Part shown: positions 9,158-62,452 of the stretch, piece by piece
Numbering within the stretch: position 1 is the first letter of the stretch
How the letters are laid out: each line of letters opens with the position of its first letter
NCBI GenBank assembly: GCA_965242525.1
Contig: OZ251459.1
Coordinates: 2,137,515 to 2,201,514 of the forward strand
Source of the DNA: an uncultured Candidatus Binatia bacterium
GTDB taxonomy: Bacteria; Desulfobacterota; Binatia; UBA9968; JAJDTQ01
DNA: 64,000 nucleotides
Direction of reading: 5' to 3'
The notes under the pieces: model-generated
The model's input: the letters and a program-made list of their open reading frames with translations, nothing else
Told to the model about the DNA's origin: nothing
Databases searched by the model: none
Program-made: the position numbers and the translations under genes

Positions 9158-9185
9158 TACCCGTGTTTCCTGTATCCAACTCATC

Positions 9186-13106: not shown

Positions 13107-13536
13107 AACACACAGAAACCTGGTCCTCCAGGTCGCAAGAGCAATTGAGGACCGTTATGCCCAAATATCCGTCATTACCGATTTGCAGCAGAACCCTGGA
13201 GATACAGTGCCACCAATGATCTGCGGCCACCGCCCTGATGTTTACGCCTACGAAGAAGTACAGCGCCTCTGCATCGTTGCAGAGGCCAAGACCGATTCGG
13301 ACCTCGACAATCTTCATACGCAACGCCAGTTGATGGCCTTTATCAACTATCTTAGCGACAGAGAAAAGAGCTTGTTCATCTTGTCGGTAAAGGGCACCAA
13401 GTCCGACCACGGGAAGACTCTGCTGCGGTTCACTCATCGACTTCTGGCTGTAAAGAACGTGCCTCTTGAAATTTTCGATGGTCATGATTTCTGGTCCTTC
13501 AACCTACAGGACGAAACTACGTGGCATTTACTTTGA
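13093..13536 (+). CDS. small hypothetical protein with PD-(D/E)XK-like motif
   Basis: 147 aa. 'RPDVYAYEEVQRLCIVAEAKTD' gives a D..(E)AK arrangement typical of the restriction-endonuclease fold. The gene is translationally coupled on both sides. Confidence 0.4.
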   Translation: MSQSETHRNLVLQVARAIEDRYAQISVITDLQQNPGDTVPPMICGHRPDVYAYEEVQRLCIVAEAKTDSDLDNLHTQRQLMAFINYLSDREKSLFILSVKGTKSDHGKTLLRFTHRLLAVKNVPLEIFDGHDFWSFNLQDETTWHLL

Positions 13537-19186: not shown

Positions 19187-19199
19187 GAGGAAACGGCGT

Positions 19200-20684: not shown

Positions 20685-20745
20685 AGTTCCTGGCCGAACG
20701 GGTCGAGGGAGTCCAGCCTTTCCATGGCAACACGTGCGAGAACCG

Positions 20746-21459: not shown

Positions 21460-21661
21460 GCTGGCGGTTTCTCCCTTCCCGGTGCGCCGCGGCCTGCGGG
21501 GACGCGGCTCCGCGGGCCGCAAGCGCGTCCGTCCCGGGGGCCTGGACCCGCCGGACACCGAGGGCCTGCCGGACGGAGGCGCCCTCTTCCAACGGCATGT
21601 GGTCGGGAGCCCTGGCGCCGGCTGCGGGACGGAAACCGCTGCGGAAGGCCTGCGGCCCGGG

Positions 21662-42143: not shown

Positions 42144-42637
42144 GGAGTCCCTCCCTCGCCGCCGGCCTTCCGCCCCCGGGCCGCGGCCTCCACCGCTTCC
42201 ACCACCGGCAGGTATCCGGTGCAGCGGCACAGGTTGCCGATGATCCCCCGGCGTATCTCGTCCCGGGAGGGGTTCGGGTTCCGGGCGAGCAGCGCATGGG
42301 CGGACATGACCATGCCGGAAGTGCAGAAGCCGCACTGGAGCGCGTGGGCCTCCTGGAACGCGGCCTGCAGGGGATGGAGCCCGCCTTCCGCGGCAAGGCC
42401 CTCGATGGTGGTGAGCTCGCGCCCGTCCGCCTGCACCGCCAGGAAGGTGCAGGACTTGGCGCTCCTGCCGTCCATCACCACCGTGCACGAGCCGCAGTTG
42501 CTGGTGTCGCACCCGTAGCGCGTGCCCTTGAGGCCGATGACGTCCCGGACGTAGTCCACCAGCAGCATGCGCGGCTCGGCCTCGCCCTGGTGGAGCCTTC
42601 CGTTGACCGTGACCGAGATCTTCCGCCTAGCGGACAT
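42140..42637 (-). CDS. (2Fe-2S)-binding small subunit of XDH-family oxidoreductase
   Basis: 'CDTSNCGSCTV' and 'CGFCTSGMVM...CRCTGY' cysteine clusters. Confidence 0.9.
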   Translation of the reverse strand: MSARRKISVTVNGRLHQGEAEPRMLLVDYVRDVIGLKGTRYGCDTSNCGSCTVVMDGRSAKSCTFLAVQADGRELTTIEGLAAEGGLHPLQAAFQEAHALQCGFCTSGMVMSAHALLARNPNPSRDEIRRGIIGNLCRCTGYLPVVEAVEAAARGRKAGGEGGTP

Positions 42638-43529
42638 GCCCTCCCTCCACCGTTTCGCCTCGATGGCGCCGCAGGGCCACGTCCACCGCCTTCCGGAACA
42701 ACGCGCCGCATACGGCCCGCTTGTAGTCGCTCGAACCGCGGACGTCGGCCAGGGGGCTCGCGGCGTCGCGGACCTGTTGGGCCGCGGCCTCCACCACGTC
42801 CGGGTCCATGCCCTGGCCCCGGAGGGTCTCCTCGGCCGCGGTCGCCCGGATGGGCGTGAGTCCGGCCGCGCCCAGGGCCACGCCGGCGTCCCGGCAGCGC
42901 CCGGACTCGTCCAGGCCGAGCTGGACCGCCACGCTGGCCACCGCGAAATCCCCGGCCCGACGCTCCAGCTTGAGGTAGGCGCCCGCGCTGCCGGCCGGCG
43001 GCAAAGGCGCCCGGACTTCCGTAATCAACTCGTCGTCGGCCAGGACCGTGGTGTAGGCATCCACGAAGAACTCCCCGGCGTCCACCACCCGGCTCCCGCG
43101 CGGTCCGACGCACACCACCTGCCCCCGCAGGGCCTGCACCACCGGACCCCAGTCCCCCGCGGGGTCTGCTTCGGCCAACGCCCCGCCCAGGGTCCCCCAA
43201 CCCCTCACCTGGGCGTCGCCGATGACTCCCGCGGCCTCGGCCATCAACCCCAGCTTCTCGCGGACCACGGGGGACGCGCCCACCTGCGCGTGCGTGGCCA
43301 GGGCGCCCACCAGCAGGAGGCCCGCGGCCTCGTCTTCCCGCACGTGCGCCAGCCCGGGAACCCGTCCGATGTCGATGACCCGGGTCGGCCGGACCAGCCG
43401 CAGCTTCATGAGCGGCACCAGGCTCTGCCCGCCGGACAGCAGCTTGGCCCCTTCTCCCGAACCCTGGAGCAGGTCGATGGCGTGTTCCACAGAATCGGCG
43501 ACGGCGTAGTCGAAGGAGGCGGGGTACAT
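42627..43529 (-). CDS. FAD-binding (CO dehydrogenase flavoprotein-like) medium subunit
   Basis: 'FDYAVADSVEHAIDLLQGSGEGAKLLSGGQSLVPLMKLRL' FAD-binding PCMH fold. Confidence 0.85.
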   Translation of the reverse strand: MYPASFDYAVADSVEHAIDLLQGSGEGAKLLSGGQSLVPLMKLRLVRPTRVIDIGRVPGLAHVREDEAAGLLLVGALATHAQVGASPVVREKLGLMAEAAGVIGDAQVRGWGTLGGALAEADPAGDWGPVVQALRGQVVCVGPRGSRVVDAGEFFVDAYTTVLADDELITEVRAPLPPAGSAGAYLKLERRAGDFAVASVAVQLGLDESGRCRDAGVALGAAGLTPIRATAAEETLRGQGMDPDVVEAAAQQVRDAASPLADVRGSSDYKRAVCGALFRKAVDVALRRHRGETVEGGHVR

Positions 43530-45677: not shown

Positions 45678-47024
45678 GTGGACGCGAGAGAACTGATCTT
45701 GCAGGACGTACGCTGCTTCCAGGACGAACAGCGTGGCCGCTTGCGGCCCGTCACGCTGCTCGTGGGCGAGAACAGTACCGGCAAGACGACCTTCCTGGGC
45801 TGTTACAGGGTGTTGCATGGGATGTTTTCCAATCCAGGGATCGGCGAATTCCTGGATTTCAACGGAGAGCCTTTCGTCATGGGTTCGTTCCGCGACATCG
45901 TCCGGTCACGACGCGGCCCGAGCGGCCGTATCGACGAGTTCAAGATCGGGGTCCGAGTCGATCGATCGCCAGACGACGTCATGTCACCGTGTGAGCTGTC
46001 GGTTGCTTTTCGCGAGAAAGGCTCGGAACCGGTGGTCTCGTCCTTGCGTTTCCAGTTCGATTCCGATGCGTTCCTAGAGATGAGTTCAGATGAGGAAGGA
46101 ACCATCGTGCAGATTCCAGGCCTTACCGAGCACGCCAAGGGTGTTCCGCTTGTTCGCACGATGGCCATGTTGGACTTCGTGATCCGCGATCCCGATTTTT
46201 GGGGAATGCCCCCCGGATGGTCAAACTTGGAAACCAGCTTCGAGTATCTCCATGGCCTGTTCTTCCGCCGAGGAGCCGCAAAGAGAAAACACACCGAACT
46301 TCAATGGCCTTTCGACGACGAGCTCCCGCGTTTGCCCGACCTGATTCCGGTCGCACCGCTTCGTTCCAAGCCCAAACGTACCTACGATCCGATACGCGAG
46401 ACCGCTTCCCCGGAAGGGGAACATGTCCCGATGCTGATGATGAGGCTGGATCGCACGGACACGCCGCACTGGAAATCGCTGCACAACGACCTCGTGAAGT
46501 TCGGCCAGGGTTCCGGGCTATTCGCCGACATCAAGGTGAAACGCCACGGCAAGCAGATGAGCGACCCTTTTCAGTTGCAGGTCAAGGTACGATCCGGACC
46601 TCATTCGAACCTCATGGACGTCGGTTACGGCGTCAGCCAGAGCCTGCCGATTCTCGTGGATGTGCTGAAAGGGTCCAGCAGCGGACGCAAGTGCGAGTTC
46701 CTGCTCCAGCAGCCGGAGGTTCACCTGCACCCTCGAGGCCAGGCGGAACTCGCCAGTCTGTTCGTCCAAGCGTTCAAGCAGAGTGGAAACCGGTTCCTGA
46801 TCGAGACCCACAGCGACTACATCATCGACCGCGTGCGCATTTCGGTCCGAAAAGGGCTGCTGAAGCCCGACGACGTGTCCCTTCTCTACTTCGAACCCAA
46901 GAGCAACGCCGTCGAGATCCACAACATGACCCTGGACGAGCATGGAAACCTCCTTGGCGCGCCGAGGGGATACCGTGACTTCTTCCTGAAGGAAACCGAC
47001 AGACTGCTGGGGTTCACGGACTGA
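45678..47024 (+). CDS. ABC/SMC-type AAA ATPase (AAA_15/AAA_21-like; OLD/PtuA/AriA-like ATPase)
   Basis: Walker A 'LLVGENSTGKTT', Walker B/D-loop 'FLLQQPEVHLHP', H-loop 'IETHSDYI'. Confidence 0.7.
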   Translation: MDARELILQDVRCFQDEQRGRLRPVTLLVGENSTGKTTFLGCYRVLHGMFSNPGIGEFLDFNGEPFVMGSFRDIVRSRRGPSGRIDEFKIGVRVDRSPDDVMSPCELSVAFREKGSEPVVSSLRFQFDSDAFLEMSSDEEGTIVQIPGLTEHAKGVPLVRTMAMLDFVIRDPDFWGMPPGWSNLETSFEYLHGLFFRRGAAKRKHTELQWPFDDELPRLPDLIPVAPLRSKPKRTYDPIRETASPEGEHVPMLMMRLDRTDTPHWKSLHNDLVKFGQGSGLFADIKVKRHGKQMSDPFQLQVKVRSGPHSNLMDVGYGVSQSLPILVDVLKGSSSGRKCEFLLQQPEVHLHPRGQAELASLFVQAFKQSGNRFLIETHSDYIIDRVRISVRKGLLKPDDVSLLYFEPKSNAVEIHNMTLDEHGNLLGAPRGYRDFFLKETDRLLGFTD

Positions 47025-47036
47025 GGGCCACCGAAG

Positions 47037-47516
47037 ATGTGCATCATCGTGGACGCCAACAAGCTCGATGTCTTTCTCGCCGACCCGGCCGACGAGAATT
47101 CCAGGCCGATACGCAGGTGGCTAAGTCAGGGCGCGGGGAGCATCGTGTATTCGACGGAAGGCAAGTTTGCGCAGGAGATCCGAGGTCGAGCCAAGGCCAA
47201 GCTGGCCGATTACGTTCGAGCCGGCAGAGCGAAGCACGTCCCCGCGAGCCTGTTCGCCGACGAAGAACGCAAGCTGGAAACTCACGCAGACCTCCGCTCC
47301 GATGATCCGCACGTGCTCGCGTTGGCGAGAGCGACCGGTGTACGTCTCCTGTACACCGCAGACGGGAAACTCACGTCGGACTTCAAGAACAAGAACATCA
47401 TCGACCGGCCGAGGGGCAAGGTTTATTCCGGCGCAGGCAATGCCAATCTGCTGACCCCCTCGGCATGTGCGTCGTCATGGCCAAGGTCTGCTTCGAAATC
47501 ATGGCCGACTTCATAG
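47037..47516 (+). CDS. PIN-like nuclease-domain protein (partner of the upstream ATPase)
   Basis: 'MCIIVDANKL' and 'DDPHVLALARATGVRLLYTADGKL' resemble PIN acidic motifs. It starts 13 nt after the ATPase stop. Confidence 0.4.
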   Translation: MCIIVDANKLDVFLADPADENSRPIRRWLSQGAGSIVYSTEGKFAQEIRGRAKAKLADYVRAGRAKHVPASLFADEERKLETHADLRSDDPHVLALARATGVRLLYTADGKLTSDFKNKNIIDRPRGKVYSGAGNANLLTPSACASSWPRSASKSWPTS

Positions 47517-47586
47517 ACACCGGCATCGCCGGGAACCTGAAGCGTCCGGGATCCAGCAATTGAGGACAGGATCGAGAAATCCGGCA

Positions 47587-49347
47587 ATGCGGTTCAGCGA
47601 CGCGGACATCGAGCACCGGTTGCGCTTGGGCGAGGACAGCGCCTGGGAGTTCAAGCAGGTCGAGTTCGCCGGGAACCGTCCGAGCCGCCCGAGCCGGGAC
47701 GACTGGGCGGACGAGATCGCGGCGTTCGCCAATGCGCGCGGCGGCGTGTTGCTCTGCGGCGTCAGCGACGATGGACAGGCGCAGGACATGTCGCGGGAGC
47801 AGATGGCCGCACTGGATGCCTTGCTCGTGGAAGTCAGCACCGATTCCATCAAACCGCCGGTACGCGTCCAGACATGGCACAGGATGCTGCCGGAGGGCAG
47901 GCGGGTGCTGCTGCTCGAAGTCCCGGAGAGCGACTCGCAGCACGACAGCCCTGGCGGAAGCTACCTTCGAGTAGGCGCCTCGAAGCGCAGGATGACGAAC
48001 GACGAGCGATTGCGTCTGGCGCAGCGGCGGGGACAGGCGCGGTTCCGCTGGTTCGACGAACAGACCGTCCCGAATACGGGCTTCCGAACGCTGGACGAGT
48101 CCCTGTGGCGGCATCTGCTCAGCGCCGAGGGCGCGGCGAATCCCGAGGCGGCGCTTGAAAAACTGGCGCTCCTGGCGCCCGACGAGGCCGGGGTCATGCG
48201 GGCAACCGTGACCGGCGTGTTGCTGTGCACCCGGAACCCGGAGGAGCGGCTGCCCAACGTCGGCATTACGGCGACGCACTATCGGGGAAGGGACCGCGCC
48301 TCCGGCCAGATCGACGCACGCGAGATCGGCGGCCCGCTGGACCAGCAGGTTGCGGACGCGATGGTCTTCGTGGCGCGGAACATGCGGGTGGCGGCGCGCA
48401 AGGAGCCGGCCCGCGTGGACGTGCCGGAATACAGCGACCGTGCGCTGTTCGAAGCCCTGGTCAACGCAGTGGCGCATCGCGACTATTCCATGCGCGGCAG
48501 CCGCATCCGGCTTTCCATGTTCGAAGACCGCCTGGAGATCCAGTCGCCCGGCTCGCTGCCGAACAACCTGACGGTGGACAGCATGGCGACGCGGCAAGCC
48601 GCCCGCAACCAGACGTTGACCTCCGTGCTCGGGCGCATGCCGGTGGGAGGAATCCGGGGTTCCGAGGAAAGACGGTATTTCATGGAACGGCGCGGGGACG
48701 GCGTTCCGATCATCCTGCGCGAAACCCGGGGGCTTTGCGGGAGACCGCCCGAATACCGGGTGATCGACGACGCGGAAGTCTGCCTCGTCATTCCCGCGGC
48801 GCCGCAGGAGCCGAGCCCCGTCCGCGCCGTCGTCAGCGTGCAGTGCGCCGGGAAGCCGCTGGCGGATGTGGACGTGCTGGCGCTGTTTCCCAACGACACA
48901 TGGAAACGCGCCGCCACCGACGAACACGGAGAGGCGCGCCTGGAACTGCACTCCGGCCGTCTGCCGATGACGGTGTTCGCCGCGGCAACGGGTTTCTCCG
49001 CCCATGTCCGTCTCGACTGGCTGCCCGCGGAGGAGGGCCGTCTCCGTCTCGAACTGGATGCCTTGCCCGGCGGCGGCGCAGTCATCCTCACCGAGGACAC
49101 CGGCGCGCTCCCGGGGCTCAAGGGAACGTTGAATCCCGTCCGCGACGCCCTCGACCGCACCTGGCTGTACGCCTCCAACATCGCCGTCAACCAGGGCCAG
49201 CCCCAGCCCGTGCACTTCATTCCCGGCGAAGACCTGCGCCTCACGGACGCCGACGGAAACGAGGCGTGGGCGCGTATCGTCGCCGTCACCGGCAGGTCGT
49301 CGCTGGTGGAGTACCGCCCGGCGGCGAAGCAGGGTCAAGTGAAGTAG
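47587..49347 (+). CDS. AlbA_2 (Schlafen-like) DNA-binding domain + HATPase_c_4 protein ('putative transcriptional regulator / RecG C-terminal-like ATPase')
   Basis: 'EDSAWEFKQVEF...EIAAFANARGGVLLCGVSDDGQ' AlbA_2 signature. Central 'LFEALVNAVAHRDYS' matches the HATPase_c_4 region. Confidence 0.7.
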   Translation: MRFSDADIEHRLRLGEDSAWEFKQVEFAGNRPSRPSRDDWADEIAAFANARGGVLLCGVSDDGQAQDMSREQMAALDALLVEVSTDSIKPPVRVQTWHRMLPEGRRVLLLEVPESDSQHDSPGGSYLRVGASKRRMTNDERLRLAQRRGQARFRWFDEQTVPNTGFRTLDESLWRHLLSAEGAANPEAALEKLALLAPDEAGVMRATVTGVLLCTRNPEERLPNVGITATHYRGRDRASGQIDAREIGGPLDQQVADAMVFVARNMRVAARKEPARVDVPEYSDRALFEALVNAVAHRDYSMRGSRIRLSMFEDRLEIQSPGSLPNNLTVDSMATRQAARNQTLTSVLGRMPVGGIRGSEERRYFMERRGDGVPIILRETRGLCGRPPEYRVIDDAEVCLVIPAAPQEPSPVRAVVSVQCAGKPLADVDVLALFPNDTWKRAATDEHGEARLELHSGRLPMTVFAAATGFSAHVRLDWLPAEEGRLRLELDALPGGGAVILTEDTGALPGLKGTLNPVRDALDRTWLYASNIAVNQGQPQPVHFIPGEDLRLTDADGNEAWARIVAVTGRSSLVEYRPAAKQGQVK

Positions 49348-49364
49348 AGGGGAGAGATTTCGCC

Positions 49365-49598
49365 ATGCTCACGTCCGCGATTACCTCGAAGGGCCGGACG
49401 ACGCTGCCCAAACCGGTTCGGGAGGCCCTTGGAGTGGGGGCCGGAAACCGTGTGCGCTACGTCATCCTCGACAACGAGGTTCGGGTTCTGCCCATGCGGC
49501 CCATCGGGCGGTTGTTCGGCGCACTGAAGCACGACGGCCCGCGGGTTACGGTGGAGGACATGGAACGCGCCATCACGGAAGGGGCGTGCGAGGAATGA
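49365..49598 (+). CDS. AbrB/MazE-family (SpoVT-AbrB fold) antitoxin-like protein
   Basis: 'SKGRTTLPKPVREALGVGAGNRVRYVI' is a swapped-hairpin barrel motif. Its stop overlaps the hsdS ATG. Confidence 0.65.
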   Translation: MLTSAITSKGRTTLPKPVREALGVGAGNRVRYVILDNEVRVLPMRPIGRLFGALKHDGPRVTVEDMERAITEGACEE

Positions 49599-50926
49599 GC
49601 GCGTTGGACACCAACTCCGCAGCCAGTAGAAAACCGCCGGCTAGCTGGCTCTATCGTCCACTGTTTCCGGCTCATTGGGAGCGCAGGCCACTTTACTCCA
49701 TGGCGCAATGGGTCAACGGACTGGCCTATCGGAATATCGAGTTCAGTGCGGCGGGACGCCCGATTATCAAGATCGCAGAGATCAAGGGCGGCATCTCGGA
49801 TCAAACCAGGTTTACATATCAAAACTTCGACGAATCGGTACGCGTGCGTGCAGGCGACCTATTGTTTTCCTGGTCTGGACAGCCGGAAACTTCCATTGAT
49901 GCGTTCCGGTGGCGTGGTCCGGAAGGCTGGTTGAACCAACATATCTTTCGTGTCACTCCCGCCGCCGGAATCGATGCCACCTTCTTTTTCTATCTCTTGC
50001 GATACCTGAATGCTCATTTCGTTGCCATTGCACGGAACAAGCAGACGATAGGTCTCGGACACGTCACAAAGCACGACCTGGAAAATATCGAGGCGGCTCT
50101 ACCCGACCGCCAGGAGCAACGCGCCATCGCTCACATCCTGGGCACGCTGGACGACAAGATCGAGTTGAACCGGCGCATGAACGAGACGCTGGAGGCCATG
50201 GCGCGGGCGCTGTTCCAGTCATGGTTCGTCGATTTCGATCCCGTGCACGCCAAGATGGAAGGCCGTGATACCGGCCTCCCCAAGCCAATCTCCGACCTCT
50301 TCCCCGATCACCTCGTGGATTCCGAGCGTGGCGAGATCCCCGAGGGATGGAAAATCAAGTCCCTGAGAGAATGTTTCCGTCTTACGATGGGGCAATCACC
50401 CCCGGGCAACACCTACAATGACCGTAGCGACGGGTTGCCTTTCTTTCAGGGACGAACTGACTTCGGGTTTCGATTTCCCGAGAATCGGAAATTCTGCACT
50501 GCTCCAACGCGGGTCGCTCAACCTGGGGATACGCTTGTCAGTGTCAGAGCGCCCGTGGGAGACATCAACATGGCATGGGAAGAATGCTGCATTGGACGCG
50601 GCGTTGCCGCACTCCGGCACCAGTCGGGTTCAAGCTCGTTCACCTATTACTCGGCTTGGGCAGTACAGAACAAAATCAGAGAGTATGAGGACACGGGTAC
50701 GGTGTTCGGAGCCATCAATCGAAAACAATTTGAAGCACTCCAGACGCTGGAACCCTCACCGGATATTGTCAATGCGTTCGACGCCCAAGCTGGACCGGTA
50801 GATGTCCGCATCAGGAACAACGTAACCGAGTCCCGAATCCTTACGACCCTGAGAGAAATCTTGCTGCCCAAGTTGATCTCCGGCGAAACCCGCCTCCGAG
50901 ACGCCGCGGAGCAGGCGGATTTGTAG
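49595..50926 (+). CDS. hsdS: type I restriction-modification specificity subunit HsdS (orphan; no hsdM/hsdR in window)
   Basis: Two target-recognition domains and conserved central/C-terminal repeats ('QRAIAHILGTLDDKIELNRRMNETLEAMARALFQSWFVDFDPV', 'LREILLPKLISGE'). Confidence 0.85.
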   Translation: MSALDTNSAASRKPPASWLYRPLFPAHWERRPLYSMAQWVNGLAYRNIEFSAAGRPIIKIAEIKGGISDQTRFTYQNFDESVRVRAGDLLFSWSGQPETSIDAFRWRGPEGWLNQHIFRVTPAAGIDATFFFYLLRYLNAHFVAIARNKQTIGLGHVTKHDLENIEAALPDRQEQRAIAHILGTLDDKIELNRRMNETLEAMARALFQSWFVDFDPVHAKMEGRDTGLPKPISDLFPDHLVDSERGEIPEGWKIKSLRECFRLTMGQSPPGNTYNDRSDGLPFFQGRTDFGFRFPENRKFCTAPTRVAQPGDTLVSVRAPVGDINMAWEECCIGRGVAALRHQSGSSSFTYYSAWAVQNKIREYEDTGTVFGAINRKQFEALQTLEPSPDIVNAFDAQAGPVDVRIRNNVTESRILTTLREILLPKLISGETRLRDAAEQADL

Positions 50927-51127
50927 GCCATCCCATGAAAAACCAATCGAAGTATTCCAGTTCCGAGACCATCGCCGAGACTTTTCGATATCTGGGACTT
51001 GACGATCCAAAACTGCGCAGTCGATTACGAGGGTTCTCCAAACCGGGGATATCGCCTCCTCGAGTCGAGAGACGCAGCAGCAAACTTGTCACTCGGAACA
51101 ACACCGCGCCAGATCAAGGAGACGATC

Positions 51128-51854
51128 ATGCCCAACTGGAATCAACTACTTGACGAGATTCGCGCCGCTGGCAGCATGTATGATGTGGTTCGCCGTCGGT
51201 ATCTGTCCAGGATCCATGAACTGACCGGTCGAAATGTGATAGTCTATTCCTCAGGTTGGCTTCAAAGAGGCAACTTGCCGGGCGTAGAGATCAACGATGA
51301 TGACAAGAACGGATTCATGACCGTCATTCATCAGATGAAGCGCGATATCGGCCTCGATCTTGTCTTGCACACCCCTGGCGGCGATGCGGCTGCCATCGAA
51401 TCCATCGTCGATTACCTGCGCTCCATGTTTCAAACAGACATACGGGCGCTCGTGCCACAGCTCGCCATGTCCGGCGGTACGATGATTGCATGCGCATGCA
51501 AGGAAATATTCATGGGAAAGCAGTCGAGTCTCGGTCCGATTGATCCTCAATTGGGAGGTATTCCAGCCCATGGCTTGGTGGAAGAGTTCAACCGCGCCAA
51601 ACTTGTCCATCGAACGATGCCGGGAGATGGGCCTGAAGGTCACCGAACTCGAAAAGAGTCAAGAGCTACAGGACGCGGTACTTTCATTGCACCATGCTTG
51701 CATGCTCACATTTACAGCTACTTCGGCCTTCAAGATCATCGAAAATCATAGGGGAATTGCATTCATCAAGATGGCACAGCCGGTCCTGGTCTCCGGGGCG
51801 CCGACCGGCAACCCGGAGCCAAGCAGGGCGCCACTGGAGCAACCGGAGAAGTGA
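51128..51854 (+). CDS. S49/SDH-family (ClpP-fold) serine peptidase, apparently frameshifted near 51.6 kb
   Basis: 'VLHTPGGDAAAIESIVDYLR...LAMSGGTMIACACKEIFMGKQSSLGPIDPQ' in one frame. A plausible C-terminal continuation ('SIERCREMGLKVTELEKSQELQDAVLSLHHACMLTF...') is in the +1 frame (ORF 51486..51854). Confidence 0.45.
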
Positions 51855-51905
51855 TCGCCTTGGGGAATCGCAAAGCGGCGCTTCGGCAATCCCGGAGATG
51901 GTACA

Positions 51906-53147
51906 ATGATCCCGATGATCCCACAGCCCCATGAACCACCGCGCGTCCAGCGCTTGAAAGTCCGTAACTTCCGCGCCTTGCGGGAGGTCGAGATCAGGAA
52001 CCTGACGCCGATGACGGTGCTGCTCGGTCCCAATGGCAGCGGCAAGTCCACCGTGTTCGACGTGTTTGCGTTCCTCTCGGAGTGCTTCGCATCCGGACTT
52101 CGGCGCGCATGGGACCGTCGCGGCCGGGCCAGGGAGATCAGGACCCGCGACGCCGAAGGGCCGATGACGATCGAGCTTCAATACCGCGAGCAGCCGAAAC
52201 CGCCGCTCATCACCTACCACTTGGAAGTGGACGAGCACCGGGGCGCGCCGGTGGTCGTCCACGAATGGCTGCAATGGACGCGGGGCAGAGCAGGGAAGCC
52301 GTTCCGTTTCCTCGAATACCGGAACGGCTTGGGCAAAGCGACCAGCGGCGAGGCGCCCGATGCGGAAGACGAGAGGCGGGAGATCCCGCTCAAATCGCCT
52401 GATCTGCTGGCGGTCAACGCGCTTGGGCAGTTCCAGGAACACCCGCGCGTGGCGGCGCTTCGCGACTTCATCATGGGCTGGCACGTTTCGTACCTCTCCG
52501 CAGACAGTGCGCGCGGCCAACCCGAAGCGGGGCCGCAGGAACGGTTGACCACCACCGGCGACAACCTCGCCAACGTGGTCCAGTACCTGAGCGAGCAGCA
52601 TCCGGCGCGGCTCGACGCCGTCTTCGAGACGCTGCGCAGGCGCGTGCCTCGTATCGATCGCATGTGGACCGAGCTCATGCCGGACGGCCGGCTGTTGCTG
52701 CAAATCAAGGACGCCCCGTTCAGCCACCCGGTTCTGTCGCGCTTCGCCTCCGACGGCACACTGAAGATGCTGGCCTACCTGGTGCTGCTGCACGACCCGG
52801 AACCGCCGCCGTTCATCGGTATCGAGGAGCCGGAAAACTTCCTGCACCCGCGGTTGCTTCCCGAGTTGGCGGAGGAGTGCCGCGCGGCCTGCGAGCGCAC
52901 GCAGTTGATGGTCACTACCCACTCGCCGTTCTTCCTGAACGCGCTGAGACCCGAGGAAGTCCGCGTCCTGTGGCGCGACGAAGCGGGCCATACGCGGGTG
53001 CAGCGGGTCGCCGACCTGGACCGTGTCCGTGCTTTCGTGGATGAAGGCGCACTGCTCGGCGATCTGTGGATGGAAGGCCAGTTCGGCGTGGGCGATCCGT
53101 TGACCCGGCATGGAGCTCCGGCGCGCGGCAGCGGAGATCGTCGATGA
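51906..53147 (+). CDS. ABC-type AAA ATPase (AAA_21-like), partner of DUF4276 protein
   Basis: Walker A '[11 protein letters not shown]', Walker B '[13 protein letters not shown]', H-loop 'VTTHSPFF'. Confidence 0.7.
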
Positions 53148-53761
53148 CGGCCGCGCGGCACCTGGAGTTCCTGGTCGAAGAACAGTCGATGGAGGCTTTT
53201 CTGCGAGGACTGCTACCGCGCCTGCTTCCCGAAGGCTGCACGTTCGAAATTCGTGTATTCCAAGGCAAACGCGATCTGATGCGACGACTCGATAGTCGTC
53301 TGCGCGGCTACAGACACTGGCTGTCCGATGAATACCGGCTCGTGGTGATGGTCGATTGCGACCGTGACGATTGCCGAACGCTCAAGGCGCGGCTCGAAGA
53401 TGCGGCAGCCGGTTCGGGACTGCACACTCGTTCGCGAGCCGAAGATGACCGCTGGCAGGTGCTCAACCGCATCGTGATCGAAGAACTGGAGGCGTGGTAT
53501 TTCGGCGATTGGGAAGCTGTGCGCAACGCCTTTCCCCGAGTGTCTTCCACAATCCCGAATAAACCGCGTTACGGGAAACCCGACGCGATCCCGGACACAT
53601 GGGAGGAATTCGGGCGCATACTGAAAAAGCACGGATACCACAGGGCCGGGCTGCGCAAGATCGAAGCCGCACGGCTCATCGCGCCGAAGATCAATCCGGC
53701 GCGCAACCGTTCGCCGAGCTTTGCGGCCTTTCGCGATGTCCTCGCCGAGGCGACCGCATGA
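53144..53761 (+). CDS. DUF4276-family protein (Toprim-like), coupled to upstream ATPase
   Basis: '[37 protein letters not shown]...[12 protein letters not shown]' matches DUF4276. ATGA start/stop overlap with the ATPase. Confidence 0.6.
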
Positions 53762-53840
53762 GGCGCCTGCCGACCGGGAGCGGCGGCGCATAACGGGACG
53801 ACGGGCGGCGCGGCACAGGGACGGCGCAAGGACAGAATCG

Positions 53841-55439
53841 ATGACACAATCGGAAACGGGTTCGGACCCGCGCGCAGCGCGGCGGAAACTCCCCATCGGT
53901 ATCCAGACCTTCCGCGAGATCCGCGAAGACGGCTGCTACTACGTGGACAAGACCGCCTACGTCCAGCGGCTGGTGGACGAAGGCAAGCACTACTTCCTGT
54001 CGCGTCCGCGACGCTTCGGCAAGAGCCTCCTGGTGGACACCATCAAAGAGCTGTTCGAAGGCAACGAGCCGCTGTTTCGGGGTCTCGCCATCCACGACAG
54101 GTGGGACTGGTCCGCTCCTCGTCCCGTGCTGCGCTTCGACTTCGGGGACGGCGGCTATGACGAACCCGGCCTCGTGCACAAGGAGGCCGCGGCGCGCCTG
54201 GGCGCCCTGGAGCGGGGGTTCGCGGTCGCCCCCCACGACGACATCGCCCCGGCCCGTTTCCGGCACCTGTTGCAGACGCTGCACGAACGCACCGGCCGGC
54301 GGGCCGCGGTGCTGATCGACGAATACGACAAGCCGATCCTGGACGCGCTGAGGTCGCCGGAGACAGCCCGCGCCAACCGCGACTTTCTGCACGGGTTGTA
54401 CTCCGTCATCAAGTCCGCGGACGCACACGTCGAATTCACCCTGCTCACCGGGGTGAGCAAGTTCTCCAAGGTCAGCCTGTTCTCGGGCTTGAACAACCTC
54501 AAGGACATCACCCTGGACCCGCGCTACTCCGCCATCTGCGGCTACACCGAGGCGGACCTCGACACGGTGTTCGCCCCGGAGTTGCTGGGACTGGACCGGG
54601 GCGAGATCCGCCGCTGGTACAACGGCTACGGCTGGCTCGGCGACGAGAAGGTCTATAACCCCTTCGACATCCTCCTGCTCTTCGACACCCGACGGTTCAA
54701 GGCATGGTGGTTCGAGACCGGCACGCCGACGTTCCTCATCGACACGCTGCTGGAGCGGGGGGTCGGCTCGCTGGCCCTCGAGGACATGCTCGGCGACGAT
54801 GCCTTGCTGTCCGCCTTCGACGTGGGCGCCATCGCCACCGAGGCGCTGCTGTTCCAGACCGGCTACCTCACCATCCATGACGAACGGGACGTGGGCGGAG
54901 AGGCCGCTTACCGGCTGGGCTATCCCAACCGGGAGGTGCGCCAGAGCCTGAACCGGAGCCTGTTGAGCCGCCTCGCGGACGATCCATCCGGCCCGACAGG
55001 GCACCGCGTCCGGCTGTACGACCTGTTGCGGGACAACGATTTCGACGGCATGGAGGCGCTGCTCAGGGCATTCTTCGCCGGGATTCCGTACCAGTGGCAT
55101 ACGAAGAACGACATCGCCGACTACGAAGGCTACTACGCGAGCGTGTTCTACGCCCTGTTCGCGTCCGCGGGGCTGGACATGACGGTGGAAGACAGCAGCA
55201 GCCGCGGGCGGGTGGAACTCACGGTGCGCCTCGACGGCAGCGTGTACCTGTTCGAGTTCAAGGTGGTGGACCCGGCCCCCCCGGGGTCGTCGGCGCAGCA
55301 AAGCGCCGCGATGACCCAGTTGCGCGAGCGGGGCTATGCGGACAAGCACCGGAGTTCCGGCCGGCCGATCCACCTGATCGCAGTGGAGTTCAGCAAGGAG
55401 ACCCGCAACCTGGCCGTGTTCGAGGCAGCGCCGGCCTGA
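53841..55439 (+). CDS. predicted AAA-ATPase (PF09820-like) with C-terminal PD-(D/E)XK-like domain, paralogue of the 10369 gene
   Basis: 'KLPIGIQTFREIREDGCYYVDKTAYVQRLVDEGKHYFLSRPRRFGKSL' and C-terminal 'GRVELTVRLDGSVYLFEFKVV'. Confidence 0.75.
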   Translation: MTQSETGSDPRAARRKLPIGIQTFREIREDGCYYVDKTAYVQRLVDEGKHYFLSRPRRFGKSLLVDTIKELFEGNEPLFRGLAIHDRWDWSAPRPVLRFDFGDGGYDEPGLVHKEAAARLGALERGFAVAPHDDIAPARFRHLLQTLHERTGRRAAVLIDEYDKPILDALRSPETARANRDFLHGLYSVIKSADAHVEFTLLTGVSKFSKVSLFSGLNNLKDITLDPRYSAICGYTEADLDTVFAPELLGLDRGEIRRWYNGYGWLGDEKVYNPFDILLLFDTRRFKAWWFETGTPTFLIDTLLERGVGSLALEDMLGDDALLSAFDVGAIATEALLFQTGYLTIHDERDVGGEAAYRLGYPNREVRQSLNRSLLSRLADDPSGPTGHRVRLYDLLRDNDFDGMEALLRAFFAGIPYQWHTKNDIADYEGYYASVFYALFASAGLDMTVEDSSSRGRVELTVRLDGSVYLFEFKVVDPAPPGSSAQQSAAMTQLRERGYADKHRSSGRPIHLIAVEFSKETRNLAVFEAAPA

Positions 55440-55465
55440 AGCGCCCGGCCGTACGGCACGCAACG

Positions 55466-59367: not shown

Positions 59368-59475
59368 GAACCTCCGGTCAATTCCGGCTCGACGTGTTTC
59401 TCCCTGTGAAAAAGCGCGTCCTTCGACTTCGCTACGCTACGCTCAGGACGAACGGGGCAATCGTTCGGGGTTTCC
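59368..59475 (+). repeat. MITE-like family A copy (minimal, one internal unit)
   Basis: 'ggaacctccggtcaattccgg...gcgcgtccttcgacttcgctacgctacgctcaggacgaacggggcaatcgttcggggtttcc'. It ends 25 nt upstream of the SBP start. Confidence 0.65.
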
Positions 59476-59497: not shown

Positions 59498-60349
59498 TCA
59501 ACTGAACAGGACCTTGGCCATCTCCGACCGGTACCGGTCCGCCAACTCGCTTCCCGGCCCCAGGACCTCGAAGATCCGGACCATCGCCTTGCGGGCGCCG
59601 TCGTCCTCGAAGGCGCGGTCTTTGCGCAGCACCGCCAGGAACTCTTCCAACGCGGCCTCGTAGAGCTCTTCCGCGGCAAGGGCCTGGGCCAGCCGGAAAC
59701 GCAACTCCACGCTGTCCGGGGCCGACGACAACCGCTGCCTGAGGGAATCCACGTCCGCGCCGTCCCCCTGGCTCAACTGCTGCCGGGCGATCAGCCGGTC
59801 GGCCTCCCTGCGCTCGGGCGAGCCCGGGGGCACCCGCTCGAGCAGCGCCAAGCCGCGCTCCGCATCCGTACCGAGCAGGATGCGTCCCATGCCGAGCAGC
59901 GCCCCCGCGTGGGGCGGCGACTCGTCCAGCACCTGTTGGTAGATTTTCGATGCCCCTTCCGCGTCGCCCCGGGACCACAACCCGTCCGCCTCGGCCGCCA
60001 TCTCGTCCTGACGCGAGGGCGCCACCGAACCCAGGACCTCGCGGACTCCGGCTTCGGGAAGCGCCCCGGTGAACTCCGCGGCAACGGCGCCGTCCTTGAA
60101 GACCTTGACCGCGGGGATCCCCTGTATGCCGAAGCCGGACGCAAGCCCGGGGTTCTCGTCCACGTTGACCTTGGCCAGGAGGAGCTTGCCCTCGTATTCC
60201 TCCACCACCCGCTCCAGCACCGGACCCAGGACCCTGCACGGGCCGCACCACGGCGCCCAGAAGTCCACCGCCACCGGCGTTTCTTCGGAACGCTTCAGCA
60301 CTTCCGCTTCGAACTCGGCGTCGCCAACGTCGAAAACCAGCGATTCCAT
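59498..60349 (-). CDS. thioredoxin-domain protein with C-terminal TPR-like domain (YbbN/CnoX-like)
   Basis: 'VDFWAPWCGPCRVLGP' thioredoxin CGPC motif followed by a helical repeat region. Confidence 0.8.
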   Translation of the reverse strand: MESLVFDVGDAEFEAEVLKRSEETPVAVDFWAPWCGPCRVLGPVLERVVEEYEGKLLLAKVNVDENPGLASGFGIQGIPAVKVFKDGAVAAEFTGALPEAGVREVLGSVAPSRQDEMAAEADGLWSRGDAEGASKIYQQVLDESPPHAGALLGMGRILLGTDAERGLALLERVPPGSPERREADRLIARQQLSQGDGADVDSLRQRLSSAPDSVELRFRLAQALAAEELYEAALEEFLAVLRKDRAFEDDGARKAMVRIFEVLGPGSELADRYRSEMAKVLFS

Positions 60350-60405
60350 GATGTTCCGGGACCTTTCCGCAGGGCCGGACCGGGTACGGGCGAGAGCCCG
60401 GCCCG

Positions 60406-60891
60406 CTATTCCCCGAGCGGGTCGAAGTCCGACCCGTTGAGGGTGAACCGACGCTCCACCGGGGTGGGCTTCAGGATCGTCTGCATGACGTAGCACCCGT
60501 TCTCGGCGTTGCGGACCACTGCGGCCACCCGCTCCGCGGGCTCGTCGGACTCCAGGTCCAGCCTGGTCTCGAACCCGACCCCCTGGGCCTCCACGGTCTC
60601 CCGCAGCACCGACCCCTGGCTCTTGAAACGCCCGGTCACGTGGACCCGGGCCTTGCCGATCTTCACCTTCATCATTTCCCCGTACCGGGAAACCTGGGTC
60701 AGCAGTCAGAACCCCAGGGAAAGCGCGAAGTACGCCAACGGCGGCGGCGCGCTGTTGTCGCCGCCGGTCCGCTCGGCCTCGTCGCACAGGACGGTGAACC
60801 CCCGGGCCTCGCCGCTCTTCTTCTGCCGTTCCAGGGCCGCGGCGTCGGCCTCGATCACGATCTCCCGCTTGACGGTCACGTCTTCGGCCAT
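60406..60891 (-). CDS. OsmC/Ohr-family peroxiredoxin-like protein with in-frame TGA (candidate selenocysteine) at 60706-60708
   Basis: ORFs 60706..60891 ('...PPPLAYFALSLGF*') and 60406..60675 ('...VRNAENGCYVMQ...') are in the same frame. They are separated only by TGA at the position where OsmC/Ohr proteins carry the peroxidatic Cys. The second Cys motif 'NAENGC' is conserved. Confidence 0.5.
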
Positions 60892-60923
60892 ATATCAACC
60901 TCCAGGGTTTGGTTTGCGAAACA

Positions 60924-61163
60924 GGAACCTCCGAACGATCGGGACAGGGGGCAAGGCTTCCTTCGACTTCGCCTCGCGTCCTTCGACTCCGCTTCGCTAC
61001 GCTCAGGACGAACGGAGATGGGAGTCCACGCTCAAGGCGAACGGGGATGGGAGCGCAACCCTTCCCAACCGACTCGTGCTGGTCACCCATGTTCAAGGCG
61101 AACGGGGATGGAGTGTCAGGGCGAGGGAGTCCATCCCGGATGCCTCGATCGTTCAGCGGTTCC
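60924..61163 (+). repeat. MITE-like family A copy with TIRs GGAACCTCCGAACGATCG / CGATCGTTCAGCGGTTCC and several internal units
   Basis: Read directly. The internal units are 'acgctcaggacgaacgg', 'acgctcaaggcgaacgggg' and 'gttcaaggcgaacgggg'. Confidence 0.7.
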
Positions 61164-61229
61164 AAAGGTAACCCATCAGCCGGAGACCGTCAATCGACCC
61201 GGCTGCACGAAGCACCGTCAAGCACCGTC

Positions 61230-61730
61230 ATGGCCCGGCGACACGCAGCCCTGATCCCGCTTTCACGCGACCATCACCAGGGGTTGACCCTGGCCTTGCG
61301 CTGCCGCAAGCACGCCCTCGGGCAGCTCAACCCCGGCGACGCCGCATCCCTGGAGGCATGCGCCGCGGAAGCCTCCCGTTTCTTCGGCGAGAGCCTGACG
61401 CCCCACTTCGAGGCCGAAGAGAAGGTCCTGTTCCCGCTGATGGCGGAATACCGGGAGAGCCGGGAGCTCGTGGCCGAGCTCCGGGGCGAGCACCGGGAGT
61501 TCCACCGTCTGCTGGCGCGGGCCGGGGATCCCCGCGGGCTGCGGAAGTTCCTGTTCGACTTCGGCGACCTGCTGGAGCGGCACATACGGAGCGAAGAGCG
61601 CGGCCTCTTCCCCGCCTTCGAGAGGCTCGTGCCGCAGGAGGAAGCCGACCGGGCCGGCCGGGAGTTGCGGCAAACCCTGGAAGGGAGCCGTGGGGCGTCC
61701 CGAGACCCCGAACTGCCGGAGTCGTCATGA
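61230..61730 (+). CDS. hemerythrin-like (HHE cation-binding) domain protein
   Basis: Spaced His/Glu pattern ('SRDHHQG', 'HFEAEEKVLFP', 'EHREFHRLL', 'ERHIRSEE'). Confidence 0.55.
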   Translation: MARRHAALIPLSRDHHQGLTLALRCRKHALGQLNPGDAASLEACAAEASRFFGESLTPHFEAEEKVLFPLMAEYRESRELVAELRGEHREFHRLLARAGDPRGLRKFLFDFGDLLERHIRSEERGLFPAFERLVPQEEADRAGRELRQTLEGSRGASRDPELPESS

Positions 61731-61748
61731 CGAAACCCCGAACGGCCC

Positions 61749-62215
61749 TCCCCGTTCGTCCTGAGCGCAGCCGAAGCCGAGTCGAAGGACGCGTAGCGTA
61801 GTATCCTGTAACAGTGTCCAAGTCACTGGCATGGAGTATCTTGTCATGCACGGAAAACATGTCTTGCGCCGCATCCCCGCTGACAGAGCGAATGTTACAG
61901 GGTAGAAACCTCTGAACAATCGGGACAGAGAGCATGGGCGCGTCCTTCGACTTCGCTTCGCTACGCTCAGGACGAACGGGAATAGGGGCGTCAGGGTGAG
62001 GGAATCGGGAATCCATCCTGGATGTCTCGATTGTTCAGAGGTTTCGGTAGTAGTTCCCTGTAACAGCGACCGAGTCACTGGCGTGGAACATTCCATCATG
62101 CACCGCGAACATGGCTCGCGCTGTATCCCTGATGATAGAGTAACTGTTACAGGGTAGTAGTTTCCCGTTCGTCCTGAGCGAAGCGAAGCGAAGTCGAAGG
62201 ACGCGCTTTCCCAAG
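61749..62215. repeat. nested repeat locus: partial family A MITE(-), 107-bp family B element, full family A MITE(+) (61906-62045), second family B element, partial family A MITE(-)
   Basis: Family B units at 61806-61905 and 62058-62157 share about 75% identity and carry 11-bp TIRs CCCTGTAACAG / CTGTTACAGGG. Confidence 0.6.
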
Positions 62216-62242
62216 GGAGAGCCGGCATTGAACGGACGTTCC

Positions 62243-62452
62243 ATGAACACCAAGACCGCGATCCTGTCCATCGACGGCCTGACCCCCGACACCGCAGCCG
62301 AGCTGTCGAAGACGCTCCGGGATGTCACGGGCGTCACCGAAGTCGATTTCTCGCTGGAACGAAAGGTAGTCGTGGTGGAGTTCGACCCGGAGGCCGCAAG
62401 CGTGGACGGGCTCACGCGCGTGGTCCTGTCCAACGGCTACAAGGTCCTCTGA
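62243..62452 (+). CDS. small ferredoxin-fold/HMA-like protein lacking the CxxC metal site
   Basis: 'AILSIDGLTPDTAAELSKTLRDVTGVTEVDFSLERKVVVVEFD' has betaalphabetabetaalphabeta HMA-like topology but no cysteines. Confidence 0.3.
   Translation: MNTKTAILSIDGLTPDTAAELSKTLRDVTGVTEVDFSLERKVVVVEFDPEAASVDGLTRVVLSNGYKVL

Follow-up and report, generated by a model that had tools for sequence, protein, structure and literature searches.

An OsmC-related gene of Candidatus Binatia with a conserved in-frame UGA codon, a predicted SECIS hairpin and a thioredoxin-TPR neighbour

Gene organisation at the locus

The window, i.e., the whole stretch of 64,000 nucleotides of Candidatus Binatia DNA that was analysed, contains two minus-strand ORFs at 60706-60891 (61 aa) and 60406-60675 (89 aa), which occur in one frame and whose sole interruption is a TGA codon at 60708-60706. 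The initial annotation had described both ORFs as adjacent and split by this TGA alone, and this was confirmed in frame and in sequence. Continuous read-through results in 161 codons, MAEDV...SLGF-[UGA]-LLTQVSRYGEMMKVK...NAENGCYVMQTILK...GE-TAG. What looks like two small genes is a single one encoding an OsmC-type antioxidant enzyme, in which the internal UGA almost certainly encodes selenocysteine (Sec). The features of the locus are as follows.

60406-60891, minus strand: single predicted OsmC-like selenoprotein gene of 161 codons, with the ATG at 60891-60889 and the TAG stop codon at 60408-60406.
60706-60708, minus strand: in-frame UGA in UGA-C context, codon 62, predicted Sec codon.
60674-60693, minus strand: hairpin within the gene, predicted to be a bacterial SECIS, with a 7-bp stem (60687-60693 with 60674-60680) and the apical loop GGUACG (60681-60686).
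60493-60495, minus strand: TGC codon of Cys133, predicted resolving Cys, in the invariant 'AENGC' motif.
60899-60903, minus strand: Shine-Dalgarno motif GGAGG, as read from the sequence, separated from the ATG by 7 nt.
59498-60349, minus strand: gene of a 283-aa protein with thioredoxin (WCGPC) and TPR parts, on the same strand as the OsmC-like gene and 56 nt downstream of it.
61230-61730, plus strand: divergent hemerythrin-domain gene (PF01814, 62.7 bits), given as neighbourhood context only.

In the public annotation (NCBI, ENA), the exact sequence is represented by the 89-aa fragment P0002, a mis-annotated truncated ORF. Likewise, 118 of the best 120 database matches are C-terminal fragments of 88-107 aa that are cut at the same codon. 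A single 'full-length' match carries a W at this position, which was introduced by the translation of the JGI pipeline; the underlying codon is TGA.

The protein encoded downstream matches Pfam Thioredoxin with 91.5 bits and additionally TPR_20 and TPR_19. Its gene is situated directly downstream and on the same strand in 67 of the 74 loci with enough sequence, and no terminator-like site was found on the minus strand between both genes in the window. Judging from this arrangement, co-transcription with the OsmC-like gene is likely. The divergent hemerythrin-domain gene is located upstream in 30 out of 77 loci and is thus less conserved than the thioredoxin-TPR gene.

Further in-frame TGA candidates of the window were rejected. 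Those at 6921, 55466, 32742, and 1008 are ordinary stops, followed in frame by the next gene or by an antisense shadow, and the candidate at 43025 belongs to a non-coding frame inside a FAD-binding gene. In case of the HMA ORF at 62228-62452, the best NCBIfam match is a UxxU (seleno)protein model, but the ORF contains neither an in-frame TGA nor a Cys.

Family membership and conservation of the UGA codon

The read-through product matches the NCBIfam model NF041052, 'OsmC-related (seleno)protein', with 178.2 bits (cut-off 95, E 8.3e-53), where residues 13-153 of the protein align with positions 4-144 of the 144 model positions. For the Pfam family PF02566 (OsmC), 50.9 bits were obtained at a gathering threshold of 27.5. 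The fold was assessed with the AlphaFold model of the orthologue P0001, which is 77% identical to the window protein and stands in for it here (pLDDT 73.5; core >80). The 50 best-ranked PDB matches listed for this model are without exception of the OsmC/Ohr type, 28 of them at E<=0.001, and the best one is 3cje with TM scores of 0.60/0.66. The domain scores and the predicted fold, which fits OsmC/Ohr structures, agree with the family assignment of the initial annotation. The window gene truly belongs to a family that has been published and curated before, and hence is not new.

The Sec reading draws on PMC9312934, PMC13188914, and PMC1088965, the last of which is the 2005 description of OsmC-like selenoproteins from the Sargasso Sea by Zhang, Fomenko and Gladyshev. 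The U-L-L-T of the read-through product fits the UxxT motif published there (PMC1088965). Both share the OsmC domain, Sec in UxxT at the position of the first catalytic Cys, the existence of Cys homologues and a bSECIS-like hairpin just downstream with G in a small apical loop. A difference in kind was not observed; the window copy originates from soil or groundwater-type Candidatus Binatia and not from marine plankton. The statement in the initial annotation that such proteins had been reported by metagenomic surveys is borne out by PMC1088965. Their presumed rarity does not hold for the Binatia lineage; 579 database matches were obtained, and a relative is encoded in 98 GTDB species genomes.

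Among solved structures, the one nearest to the window protein both in sequence (E 1.6e-12) and in fold is 3cje, the OsmC-like Jann_2040 of Jannaschia sp. CCS1, a structural-genomics entry without reported function. It has GGD-SAPPPLA, C-x-x-T-Q, and GC-F/Y-x-x-Q in common with the window protein, and its first catalytic Cys occupies the column of the UGA codon. The same column contains Cys in 18 Cys-form orthologues, embedded in F-C-[T/A]-L-T-Q. Alignment with Cys- and Sec-containing homologues thus places the catalytic Cys at the UGA and not elsewhere, as the initial annotation had supposed for the first catalytic Cys. Its second proposal, a resolving Cys in 'NAENGC', likewise stood: Cys133 is invariant across Sec and Cys forms, and its counterpart in 3cje is the second Cys (KKGC). 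In the alignment of both forms the columns of U62 and C133 are both invariant, and in the P0001 model U62 lies within helix 51-73 and C133 between helices 119-132 and 134-140.

Compared to E. coli OsmC and to Ohr of Xylella, Pseudomonas, and Chromobacterium (PDB 1qwi, 1nye, 1n2f, 6ebc), the modelled fold is the same, with two conserved redox residues in both, one situated on the central helix and the other in the C-terminal helical region. By analogy, the expected chemistry would be alike: the peroxidatic residue would attack first and then form an intramolecular bond with the resolving Cys. The identity amounts to just ~10-15%, however, and the nucleophile is Cys in OsmC/Ohr and predicted to be Sec in the window protein. 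Unlike the characterised Cys-based, thiol-dependent OsmC/Ohr hydroperoxide reductases, the window protein belongs to the COG1765/YhfA-type branch.

TGA was observed at the Sec codon in all 83 homologous loci, including 80 species-level genomes, mostly of Candidatus Binatia; TAA, TAG, and TGY do not occur. The context is TGAC in 72 of 74 distinct sequences. With a dN/dS of 0.12 upstream and 0.17 downstream of the TGA, both halves of the gene are under purifying selection, and a pS of ~0.65 in both halves indicates that synonymous sites are near saturation. No other stop codon is present in the last 55 codons before the TGA in any locus, nor between the TGA and the normal gene end. In the window, TGA serves as an ordinary stop in 26 of 40 genes, and thus UGA is not reassigned.

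The hairpin downstream of the UGA codon

A hairpin of 20 nt, G-UUUCCC / GGUACG / GGGAAA-U (60693-60674), folds at -8.7 kcal/mol, with its stem beginning 12 nt after the UGA. In comparison to shuffled sequences, the folding energy of the 73-nt stretch downstream of the UGA is unremarkable (z = +0.8). Folding energy alone is no evidence for the hairpin; the comparative data put it far beyond chance. Among the hairpin codons TCC CGG TAC GGG GAA, positions +6 to +9 are devoid of synonymous variation and +10 changes from GAA to GAG in 4 of 80 sequences, whereas other invariant residues show 0.8-2.2 bits of synonymous variation. Accordingly, pS drops to 0.04 in the hairpin codons compared to 0.65 elsewhere, a constraint that acts at the RNA level. 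The stem pairs in 73-74 of 74 sequences, and the loop GTA is invariant in 74 of 74. One stem pair is replaced in a compensatory manner, from U-A to C-G, in three sequences, and a C.A mismatch occurs at this pair in one sequence; covariation is represented by this single variable pair in an otherwise almost invariant hairpin. In seven Cys-form genes, the codons at the hairpin positions vary and no comparable hairpin exists (0 to -5.3 kcal/mol). The Cys-form genes were gathered by protein search and contig look-ups, and a metagenome scan for Cys forms with P0007 gave one locus only.

In the description of bacterial SECIS elements (bSECIS), the apical loop comprises 3-9 nt and the upper stem 4-16 bp, the spacing is 16-37 nt, the MFE is <= -7.5 kcal/mol, and a G occupies one or both of the loop positions 1 and 2, mostly as GG or GU (PMC13188914, Fig. 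2 legend). The window hairpin exhibits a 6-nt loop, GGUACG, on 7 bp or, in the alternative register, a loop of 3 nt above 8 bp that include a bulge. Its loop starts with G-G-U, and the pattern N1-G-[G|U]-N-N2-N is realised as G-G-U-A-C-G with G-C as N1-N2. The distance from UGA to loop is 19 nt (60705-60687), and -8.7 kcal/mol lies below the energy limit. The hairpin of the initial annotation is therefore retained in its location, and it fits all four bSECIS constraints; the GUA triloop register proposed for it is not the thermodynamically preferred one, as the 7-bp stem with the GGUACG hexaloop reaches -8.7 kcal/mol and the GUA triloop with bulge -4.9 kcal/mol. Three G-to-C variants fall on the bulge position of the triloop register. 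No SECIS or other Rfam family matched the hairpin when the complete window was scanned at gathering thresholds; under permissive settings, 60600-60760 likewise yielded no SECIS and only chance matches with E > 2.

Similar to the SECIS elements of E. coli fdhF and fdnG and to the consensus (Zhang and Gladyshev 2005), the hairpin is located in the coding sequence just 3' of the UGA and has a small loop starting with G-G-U. It is far shorter than the fdhF element (40 nt), its flanks are unpaired, so that a lower stem is missing, and in contrast to fdhF/fdnG its preferred register does not comprise a bulged U. On sequence grounds, we infer that the hairpin acts as a SECIS, with SelB binding and Sec insertion as its function.

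Probable selenocysteine decoding, alternative explanations and the proposed enzyme couple

Concerning the decoding machinery, selA, selB, selD, and tRNA-Sec were sought in the 64-kb window and in ~0.9 Mb of related loci, and none of them was found there. ARAGORN predicted no tRNA in the window and a single one in the 83 loci, which is not tRNA-Sec. Pfam scans of ~60 window ORFs did not reveal SelA, SelB, or SelD, and tblastn with the E. coli proteins against the window and all loci gave no matches. Within ~6 kb of the OsmC-like gene, the related loci contain nine other in-frame-TGA genes of recognised selenoprotein families, namely AhpC/TSA with W-U-P-Y-C, Prx with PT-U, and CMD with C-S-Y-U, each of which is followed by a hairpin; they speak indirectly for Sec use in this lineage. 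A search for literature on Sec in Binatia or Binatota returned nothing relevant.

Three alternatives to Sec insertion have to be considered. The two ORFs might represent a truly split gene, in which UGA terminates translation, the conserved AUG-AUG (M73/M74) allows re-initiation with the invariant GGGGAA as Shine-Dalgarno sequence and not as a hairpin arm, and an OsmC-like fold is built from the two fragments. An 89-aa ORF from M73 is indeed what gene callers predict, and the 3' arm GGGGAA is placed right before AUGAUG, so that a ribosome-binding site might in principle account for the conservation of this arm taken by itself. The 5' arm UUUCCC, however, has no role in such a model and is equally invariant synonymously, the only variable stem position changes compensatorily, and a distance of just 0-3 nt between GGGGAA and the AUGs is too near for a normal Shine-Dalgarno sequence. 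The Cys forms, which consist of a single ORF, likewise conserve E-M-M-K and do not possess an SD-like sequence there. Furthermore, TGA is the sole stop codon seen at this position, to the exclusion of TAA and TAG, and it replaces exactly the catalytic Cys, so that a split product would lack the nucleophile. Taken together, we regard a split gene as extremely unlikely. A pseudogene would have arisen within the lineage by a nonsense mutation in an OsmC gene of the Cys type, with decay of the downstream part, and the restriction of the public annotation to the truncated 89-aa ORF (P0002) would agree with it. This reading is refuted by the conservation data and its probability is negligible: the TGA is retained in all 83 loci and 80 species-level genomes despite synonymous sites near saturation, purifying selection extends across the downstream half, and further stops do not occur. 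The decay of downstream sequence named in the initial annotation as an outcome speaking against Sec was thus not observed. For contrast, a real interrupted gene, the peroxiredoxin gene of locus L089, has a TAG at a non-catalytic position.

The third alternative is a suppression of UGA62 independent of selenium. Here, a near-cognate tRNA (Trp/Cys) or a lineage-specific suppressor would read the codon, and the hairpin would slow the ribosome or hinder RF2. Of the termination contexts known in E. coli, UGA-C is the most leaky, and it is present in 72 of 74 sequences; the Sec machinery was not found in the window or the related loci searched, and in one orthologue the codon was rendered as W by the JGI pipeline. 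Against such a suppression stands the use of TGA as a normal stop in the window (26 of 40 genes). TGC and TGG are only one mutation away, yet they were found in 0 of 83 loci. The hairpin moreover agrees with the bSECIS consensus, also in its spacing and in the G-G/U at the start of its loop, related genomes carry further genes of classic selenoprotein families with UGA at a redox Cys, and the family is curated as selenoprotein (NF041052). We consider this explanation very unlikely.

Sec decoding remains our preferred reading, and it is highly probable that 60406-60891 on the minus strand is one OsmC-related selenoprotein gene (NF041052; 'OsmC-like protein, UxxT' family) with a SECIS-decoded Sec62, whose product would function as a peroxidase and would be recycled by the thioredoxin-TPR protein. 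During translation, the 20-nt hairpin located 12 nt after UGA62 would serve as bacterial SECIS and recruit SelB.GTP.Sec-tRNA(Sec), so that UGA would be read as Sec instead of causing termination and a protein of 161 residues would be produced. By homology with the OsmC/Ohr thiol peroxidases, Sec62 on the long central helix would be the peroxidatic residue attacking the hydroperoxide, and the resulting selenenic acid would form a selenenylsulfide with Cys133. We know of no biochemical demonstration of peroxidase activity for the COG1765-type subfamily.

Reduction would then probably be accomplished by the thioredoxin-TPR protein, which is likely co-transcribed and is proposed as reductant on account of the conserved gene order (synteny). 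In the case of Ohr, lipoylated proteins perform the recycling, whereas the conserved neighbour of the window gene is a thioredoxin-TPR protein. Similar to YbbN/CnoX-type proteins, the latter consists of an N-terminal thioredoxin domain followed by TPR_19/TPR_20. The motif of E. coli CnoX is SQHC, whereas the neighbour protein keeps the canonical redox motif WCGPC and is thus more likely a true disulfide or selenenylsulfide reductase.

In Candidatus Binatia, the Sec form appears to be fixed, its SECIS hardly varies and the thioredoxin-TPR gene next to it is conserved, details for which no description was found in the literature compared. It is tempting to speculate that the OsmC-like selenoprotein and the adjacent thioredoxin-TPR protein of the Binatia constitute a dedicated two-component seleno-peroxidase, with Sec fixed (no reversion to Cys in 80 species) and with a nearly invariant, unusually minimal 20-nt SECIS that lacks a lower stem, a proposal which we put forward tentatively and with less than even confidence. 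If true, it would provide a natural 'minimal bSECIS' and a previously uncharacterised couple of reductant and enzyme for the COG1765 branch of the OsmC family.

The window gene leaves the current understanding of selenoproteins unchanged. With 118 of the best 120 relatives truncated and one given Trp, the redox enzyme complement of Binatia genomes is systematically under-called, and recognition of the gene identifies this lineage as one that uses selenium. The 20-nt hairpin, almost invariant as it is, represents a compact natural SECIS that could serve recoding work. In the conserved pairing with the thioredoxin-TPR protein, an uncharacterised branch of the OsmC family gains a candidate reductant that can be put to the test.

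Reading frame and family identity

The OsmC-like gene is listed as two minus-strand ORFs of the same frame, and according to the sequence, the ORF list and the translation of 60406–60891 the sole break between the ATG (60891) and the TAG (60408–60406) is a TGA, as the initial annotation had described. A GGAGG is located 7 nt 5' of the ATG in the minus-strand sequence of 60200–61200.

Features of the OsmC-like gene
60706–60891, minus strand: 5' ORF, 61 codons
60706–60708, minus strand: in-frame TGA, codon 62
60406–60675, minus strand: 3' ORF, 89 codons, same frame as the 61-codon ORF
60674–60693, minus strand: hairpin G-UUUCCC / GGUACG / GGGAAA-U, stem starting 12 nt past the UGA

Profile and sequence comparisons were carried out with the 161-residue product containing Cys in place of the internal stop. 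The proposed OsmC/Ohr-like identity is confirmed by Pfam OsmC (50.9 bits, threshold 27.5), by NCBIfam NF041052 "OsmC_like_Se, OsmC-related (seleno)protein" (178.2 bits, curated cut-off 95, model positions 4–144 of 144), and by the closest solved sequence, the OsmC-like protein PDB 3cje. In the 3cje alignment, the Cys of "GLTGCVMTQ" is situated opposite the UGA and "KKGCF" opposite "ENGCY". An orthologue with 77% identity was modelled with AlphaFold (pLDDT 73.5, core >80), and residue 62 lies on the long central helix; the top 50 solved-structure matches listed for this model are all OsmC/Ohr-type, 28 of them with E ≤ 0.001.

A second protein search, seeded with the one Cys-containing match, revealed a clade of 18 full-length proteins of 172–183 aa, which are far fewer than the Sec forms of the subfamily. 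At the Sec column, each of the 18 reads F-C-[T/A]-L-T-Q; the second Cys is likewise invariant in "AExGC" (18/18). Thus the catalytic Cys is aligned exactly at the UGA and not elsewhere, and the positions originally assigned to the first catalytic and the second (resolving) Cys agree with both 3cje and the Cys forms.

Conservation of the UGA and of the downstream hairpin

The protein search yielded 579 relatives. Among the best 120, 118 are C-terminal fragments of 88–107 residues covering 53–61% of the query, and their common breakpoint is explained by the recurrence of the same stop, at which gene callers yield such products. The 77%-identical orthologue P0001 is seemingly full-length with Trp at the Sec column, but its contig codon is TGA. 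With every GTDB species represented by one genome, the scan showed a relative to be encoded in 98 genomes, from which 80 loci were kept, mostly of Candidatus Binatia or of MAGs labelled Deltaproteobacteria; all 80 align with query residues 1 to about 158 and hence span the stop. Including three metagenome contigs of the window's own species, the aligned codon is TGA in 83 out of 83 loci, and never TAA, TAG, TGC, or TGT. A C follows the UGA in 72 of 74 sequences, UGA-C being a weak termination context.

An internal stop could reflect a nonsense mutation with a decayed downstream part. This is ruled out by the conserved TGA together with purifying selection on both halves (dN/dS 0.12 over the 40 codons preceding the UGA and 0.17 over codons +12 to +90 downstream; Nei-Gojobori, 600 random pairs), at synonymous sites near saturation (pS about 0.65), and by the lack of further stops in any locus, both within the 55 codons that precede the TGA and up to the normal gene end. 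A reassigned genetic code would likewise permit readthrough, but is excluded since TGA terminates 26 of the 40 Pfam-supported genes of the window. The UGA is best read as a Sec codon, as initially proposed.

A contrasting case occurs at L089:6154–6813, in a genome whose OsmC-like gene is of the Cys form: an in-frame TAG interrupts the gene of a 1-Cys peroxiredoxin. This TAG is situated at a non-catalytic position (EKS*GHAL) with the catalytic Cys intact, and probably reflects either a true nonsense mutation or an error in sequencing.

The hairpin downstream of the UGA is nearly invariant. Codons +6 to +10 (TCC CGG TAC GGG GAA) are used in 80/80, 80/80, 80/80, 77/77, and 76/80 cases, respectively, among 80 distinct sequences. 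TCC and CGG are non-preferred Ser and Arg codons in the rest of the gene; neighbouring invariant residues show a synonymous codon entropy of 0.8–2.2 bits. Over the seven hairpin codons synonymous divergence amounts to 0.04, compared to 0.65 elsewhere. The six stem pairs at positions 2–7 are formed in 71–74 of 74 distinct 72-nt segments and the outermost of the seven pairs (1–20) in 62; the flanks of the stem are unpaired. Variation among the internal pairs is confined to one, with U-A in 69 segments, C-G in three (compensatory), U.G in one, and C.A in one. The GUA-loop hairpin of the initial annotation was recovered and may adopt either of two registers, its triloop with a bulged G (−4.9 kcal/mol) or a 7-bp stem with a GGUACG hexaloop (−8.7 kcal/mol), the latter being predicted to be more stable. 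In three sequences, a G to C exchange at position 14 abolishes a pair in the hexaloop register and retains it in the triloop register.

Hairpin compared with the bacterial SECIS consensus (constraints from the legend of Fig. 2, PMC13188914)
Apical loop: required 3–9 nt; observed 6 nt
Upper stem: required 4–16 bp; observed 7 bp
G in first two loop positions: required at least one; observed G-G-U
UGA-to-loop distance: required 16–37 nt; observed 19 nt
MFE: required ≤ −7.5 kcal/mol; observed −8.7 kcal/mol

Every observed value lies within the consensus limits, and the spacing is accordingly compatible with bacterial SECIS elements, as had been suggested. An Rfam scan returned no matching family for the hairpin, and the wider 73-nt stretch has an ordinary folding energy. 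The seven Cys-form genes with retrieved DNA have TGC at the Sec column, varied codons at the hairpin positions (AGC/ACC/ACG/GGC; CGG/CGC; TAT/TAC; AGC/TCC/GGC/GCC; GAA/GAG/AAG) and no comparable hairpin (folds of 0 to −5.3 kcal/mol), so the hairpin tracks the UGA. Taken together, a SECIS-directed Sec codon in the OsmC-like gene is very probable.

No tRNA was found in the 64-kb window, no SelA, SelB, or SelD among about 60 window ORFs scanned, and no match to the E. coli proteins in the window or the fetched loci. A scan of the fetched loci for conserved in-frame TGAs revealed nine more, all no further than about 6 kb from the OsmC-like gene. Each occupies a redox-Cys position in a protein whose family was confirmed by Pfam, and has downstream of it a stable hairpin whose apical loop contains G.

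Further in-frame TGAs in homologous loci of other genomes
L035:4654, L055:3536, L057:3937, plus strand: AhpC/TSA, W-U-P-Y-C
L038:4425, L040:1968, L061:4406, minus strand: peroxiredoxin, PT-U
L045:6858, L048:4584, L055:6979, minus strand: CMD/AhpD-like, C-S-Y-U

UxxC, TxxU, and CxxU are published motifs of recognised selenoprotein families (PMC1088965). Judging from these genes and their hairpins, genomes of the Binatia lineage evidently decode Sec. The three selenoprotein genes that locus L055 contains within 12 kb suggest that seleno-redox genes cluster locally.

Genomic context and a possible reducing partner

The window DNA is 92% identical to the complete Candidatus Binatia chromosome OZ241979.1 and 97% identical to metagenome contigs bearing the identical 89-aa fragment. 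A gene encoding a 283-aa protein with thioredoxin (WCGPC) and TPR domains is located 56 nt downstream of the OsmC-like gene on the same strand, and no minus-strand terminator-like site was found between them. This gene is directly adjacent, on the same strand, in 67 of 74 loci with enough sequence; conservation is lower for a divergent hemerythrin-domain gene upstream (30/77). By homology with the OsmC/Ohr family, Sec62 would most likely attack a hydroperoxide, and the resulting selenenic acid would form a selenenylsulfide with Cys133; the conserved gene order suggests that the thioredoxin domain of the adjoining protein might then reduce it. We give this mechanism an even chance of being correct.

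The OsmC-like, thioredoxin, hemerythrin, and HMA genes are flanked by REP-like intergenic repeats of about 45 nt (CGCGTCCTTCGACTTCGCTTCGCTACGCTCAGGACGAACGG) in both orientations (59411–59462, 60956–61022, 61026–61050, 61087–61111, 61746–61802, 61938–61986, and 62162–62209), with copies up to 98% complementary. Long spurious ORFs arise from them, e.g., with the translation ...LRFATLRTNG.... The small HMA-fold ORF (62228–62452, plus strand), which 27 of 83 loci carry close to the OsmC-like gene, matches best the NCBIfam "UxxU metal-binding (seleno)protein" (30.7 bits, below cut-off). With G-L-T-P-D-T at the expected CxxC/UxxU site and neither Cys nor TGA, it is a degenerate metal-binding domain.

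Other regions of the window
5874–9113: MoaA and MoCF biosynthesis genes
~9150–21560: gene run typical of a mobile or defence island (NikA-like, AbiEii-like nucleotidyltransferase, AAA ATPases, SNF2 helicase, GHKL ATPase (HATPase_c_3), N6/N4 DNA methylase, metallophosphoesterase); several ORFs without Pfam match, GC3 below the rest of the window
39711–43529, minus strand: molybdenum hydroxylase genes of xanthine or CO dehydrogenase type (large MoCo-binding and FAD-binding subunits)
~45680–55440: second defence-like cluster (AAA_15/AAA_21 with DUF3696; Schlafen/AlbA_2 with HATPase_c_4 protein; type I restriction-modification specificity subunit; SDH-type ClpP-like protease; another AAA_21 ATPase; AAA-ATPase_like with PD-(D/E)XK nuclease)

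Relation to known selenoproteins and public annotation

OsmC-like selenoproteins have indeed emerged from metagenomic surveys, as the initial annotation stated: in 2005, 15 new selenoprotein families were described from Sargasso Sea sequences, one of them an "OsmC-like protein" (COG1765, UxxT) with a predicted SECIS and Cys homologues (PMC1088965). The family is included in reviews of 2022 (PMC9312934) and 2026 (PMC13188914), and NF041052 is its curated NCBI HMM. As the window gene has every feature of membership open to testing, the finding is correct and already known: the feature is real, its interpretation as a selenoprotein is supported, and the family has been described.

Three aspects may be undescribed so far: the Sec form is fixed across Binatia, its very short SECIS hardly varies, and the thioredoxin-TPR partner is conserved. 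They would be modest additions. The practical point concerns annotation. In NCBI and ENA, the exact window sequence is represented by the 89-aa C-terminal fragment only (P0002; 60406–60675), and the JGI call of P0001 rendered the UGA as Trp; almost everywhere in public annotation, this gene is truncated or mistranslated.
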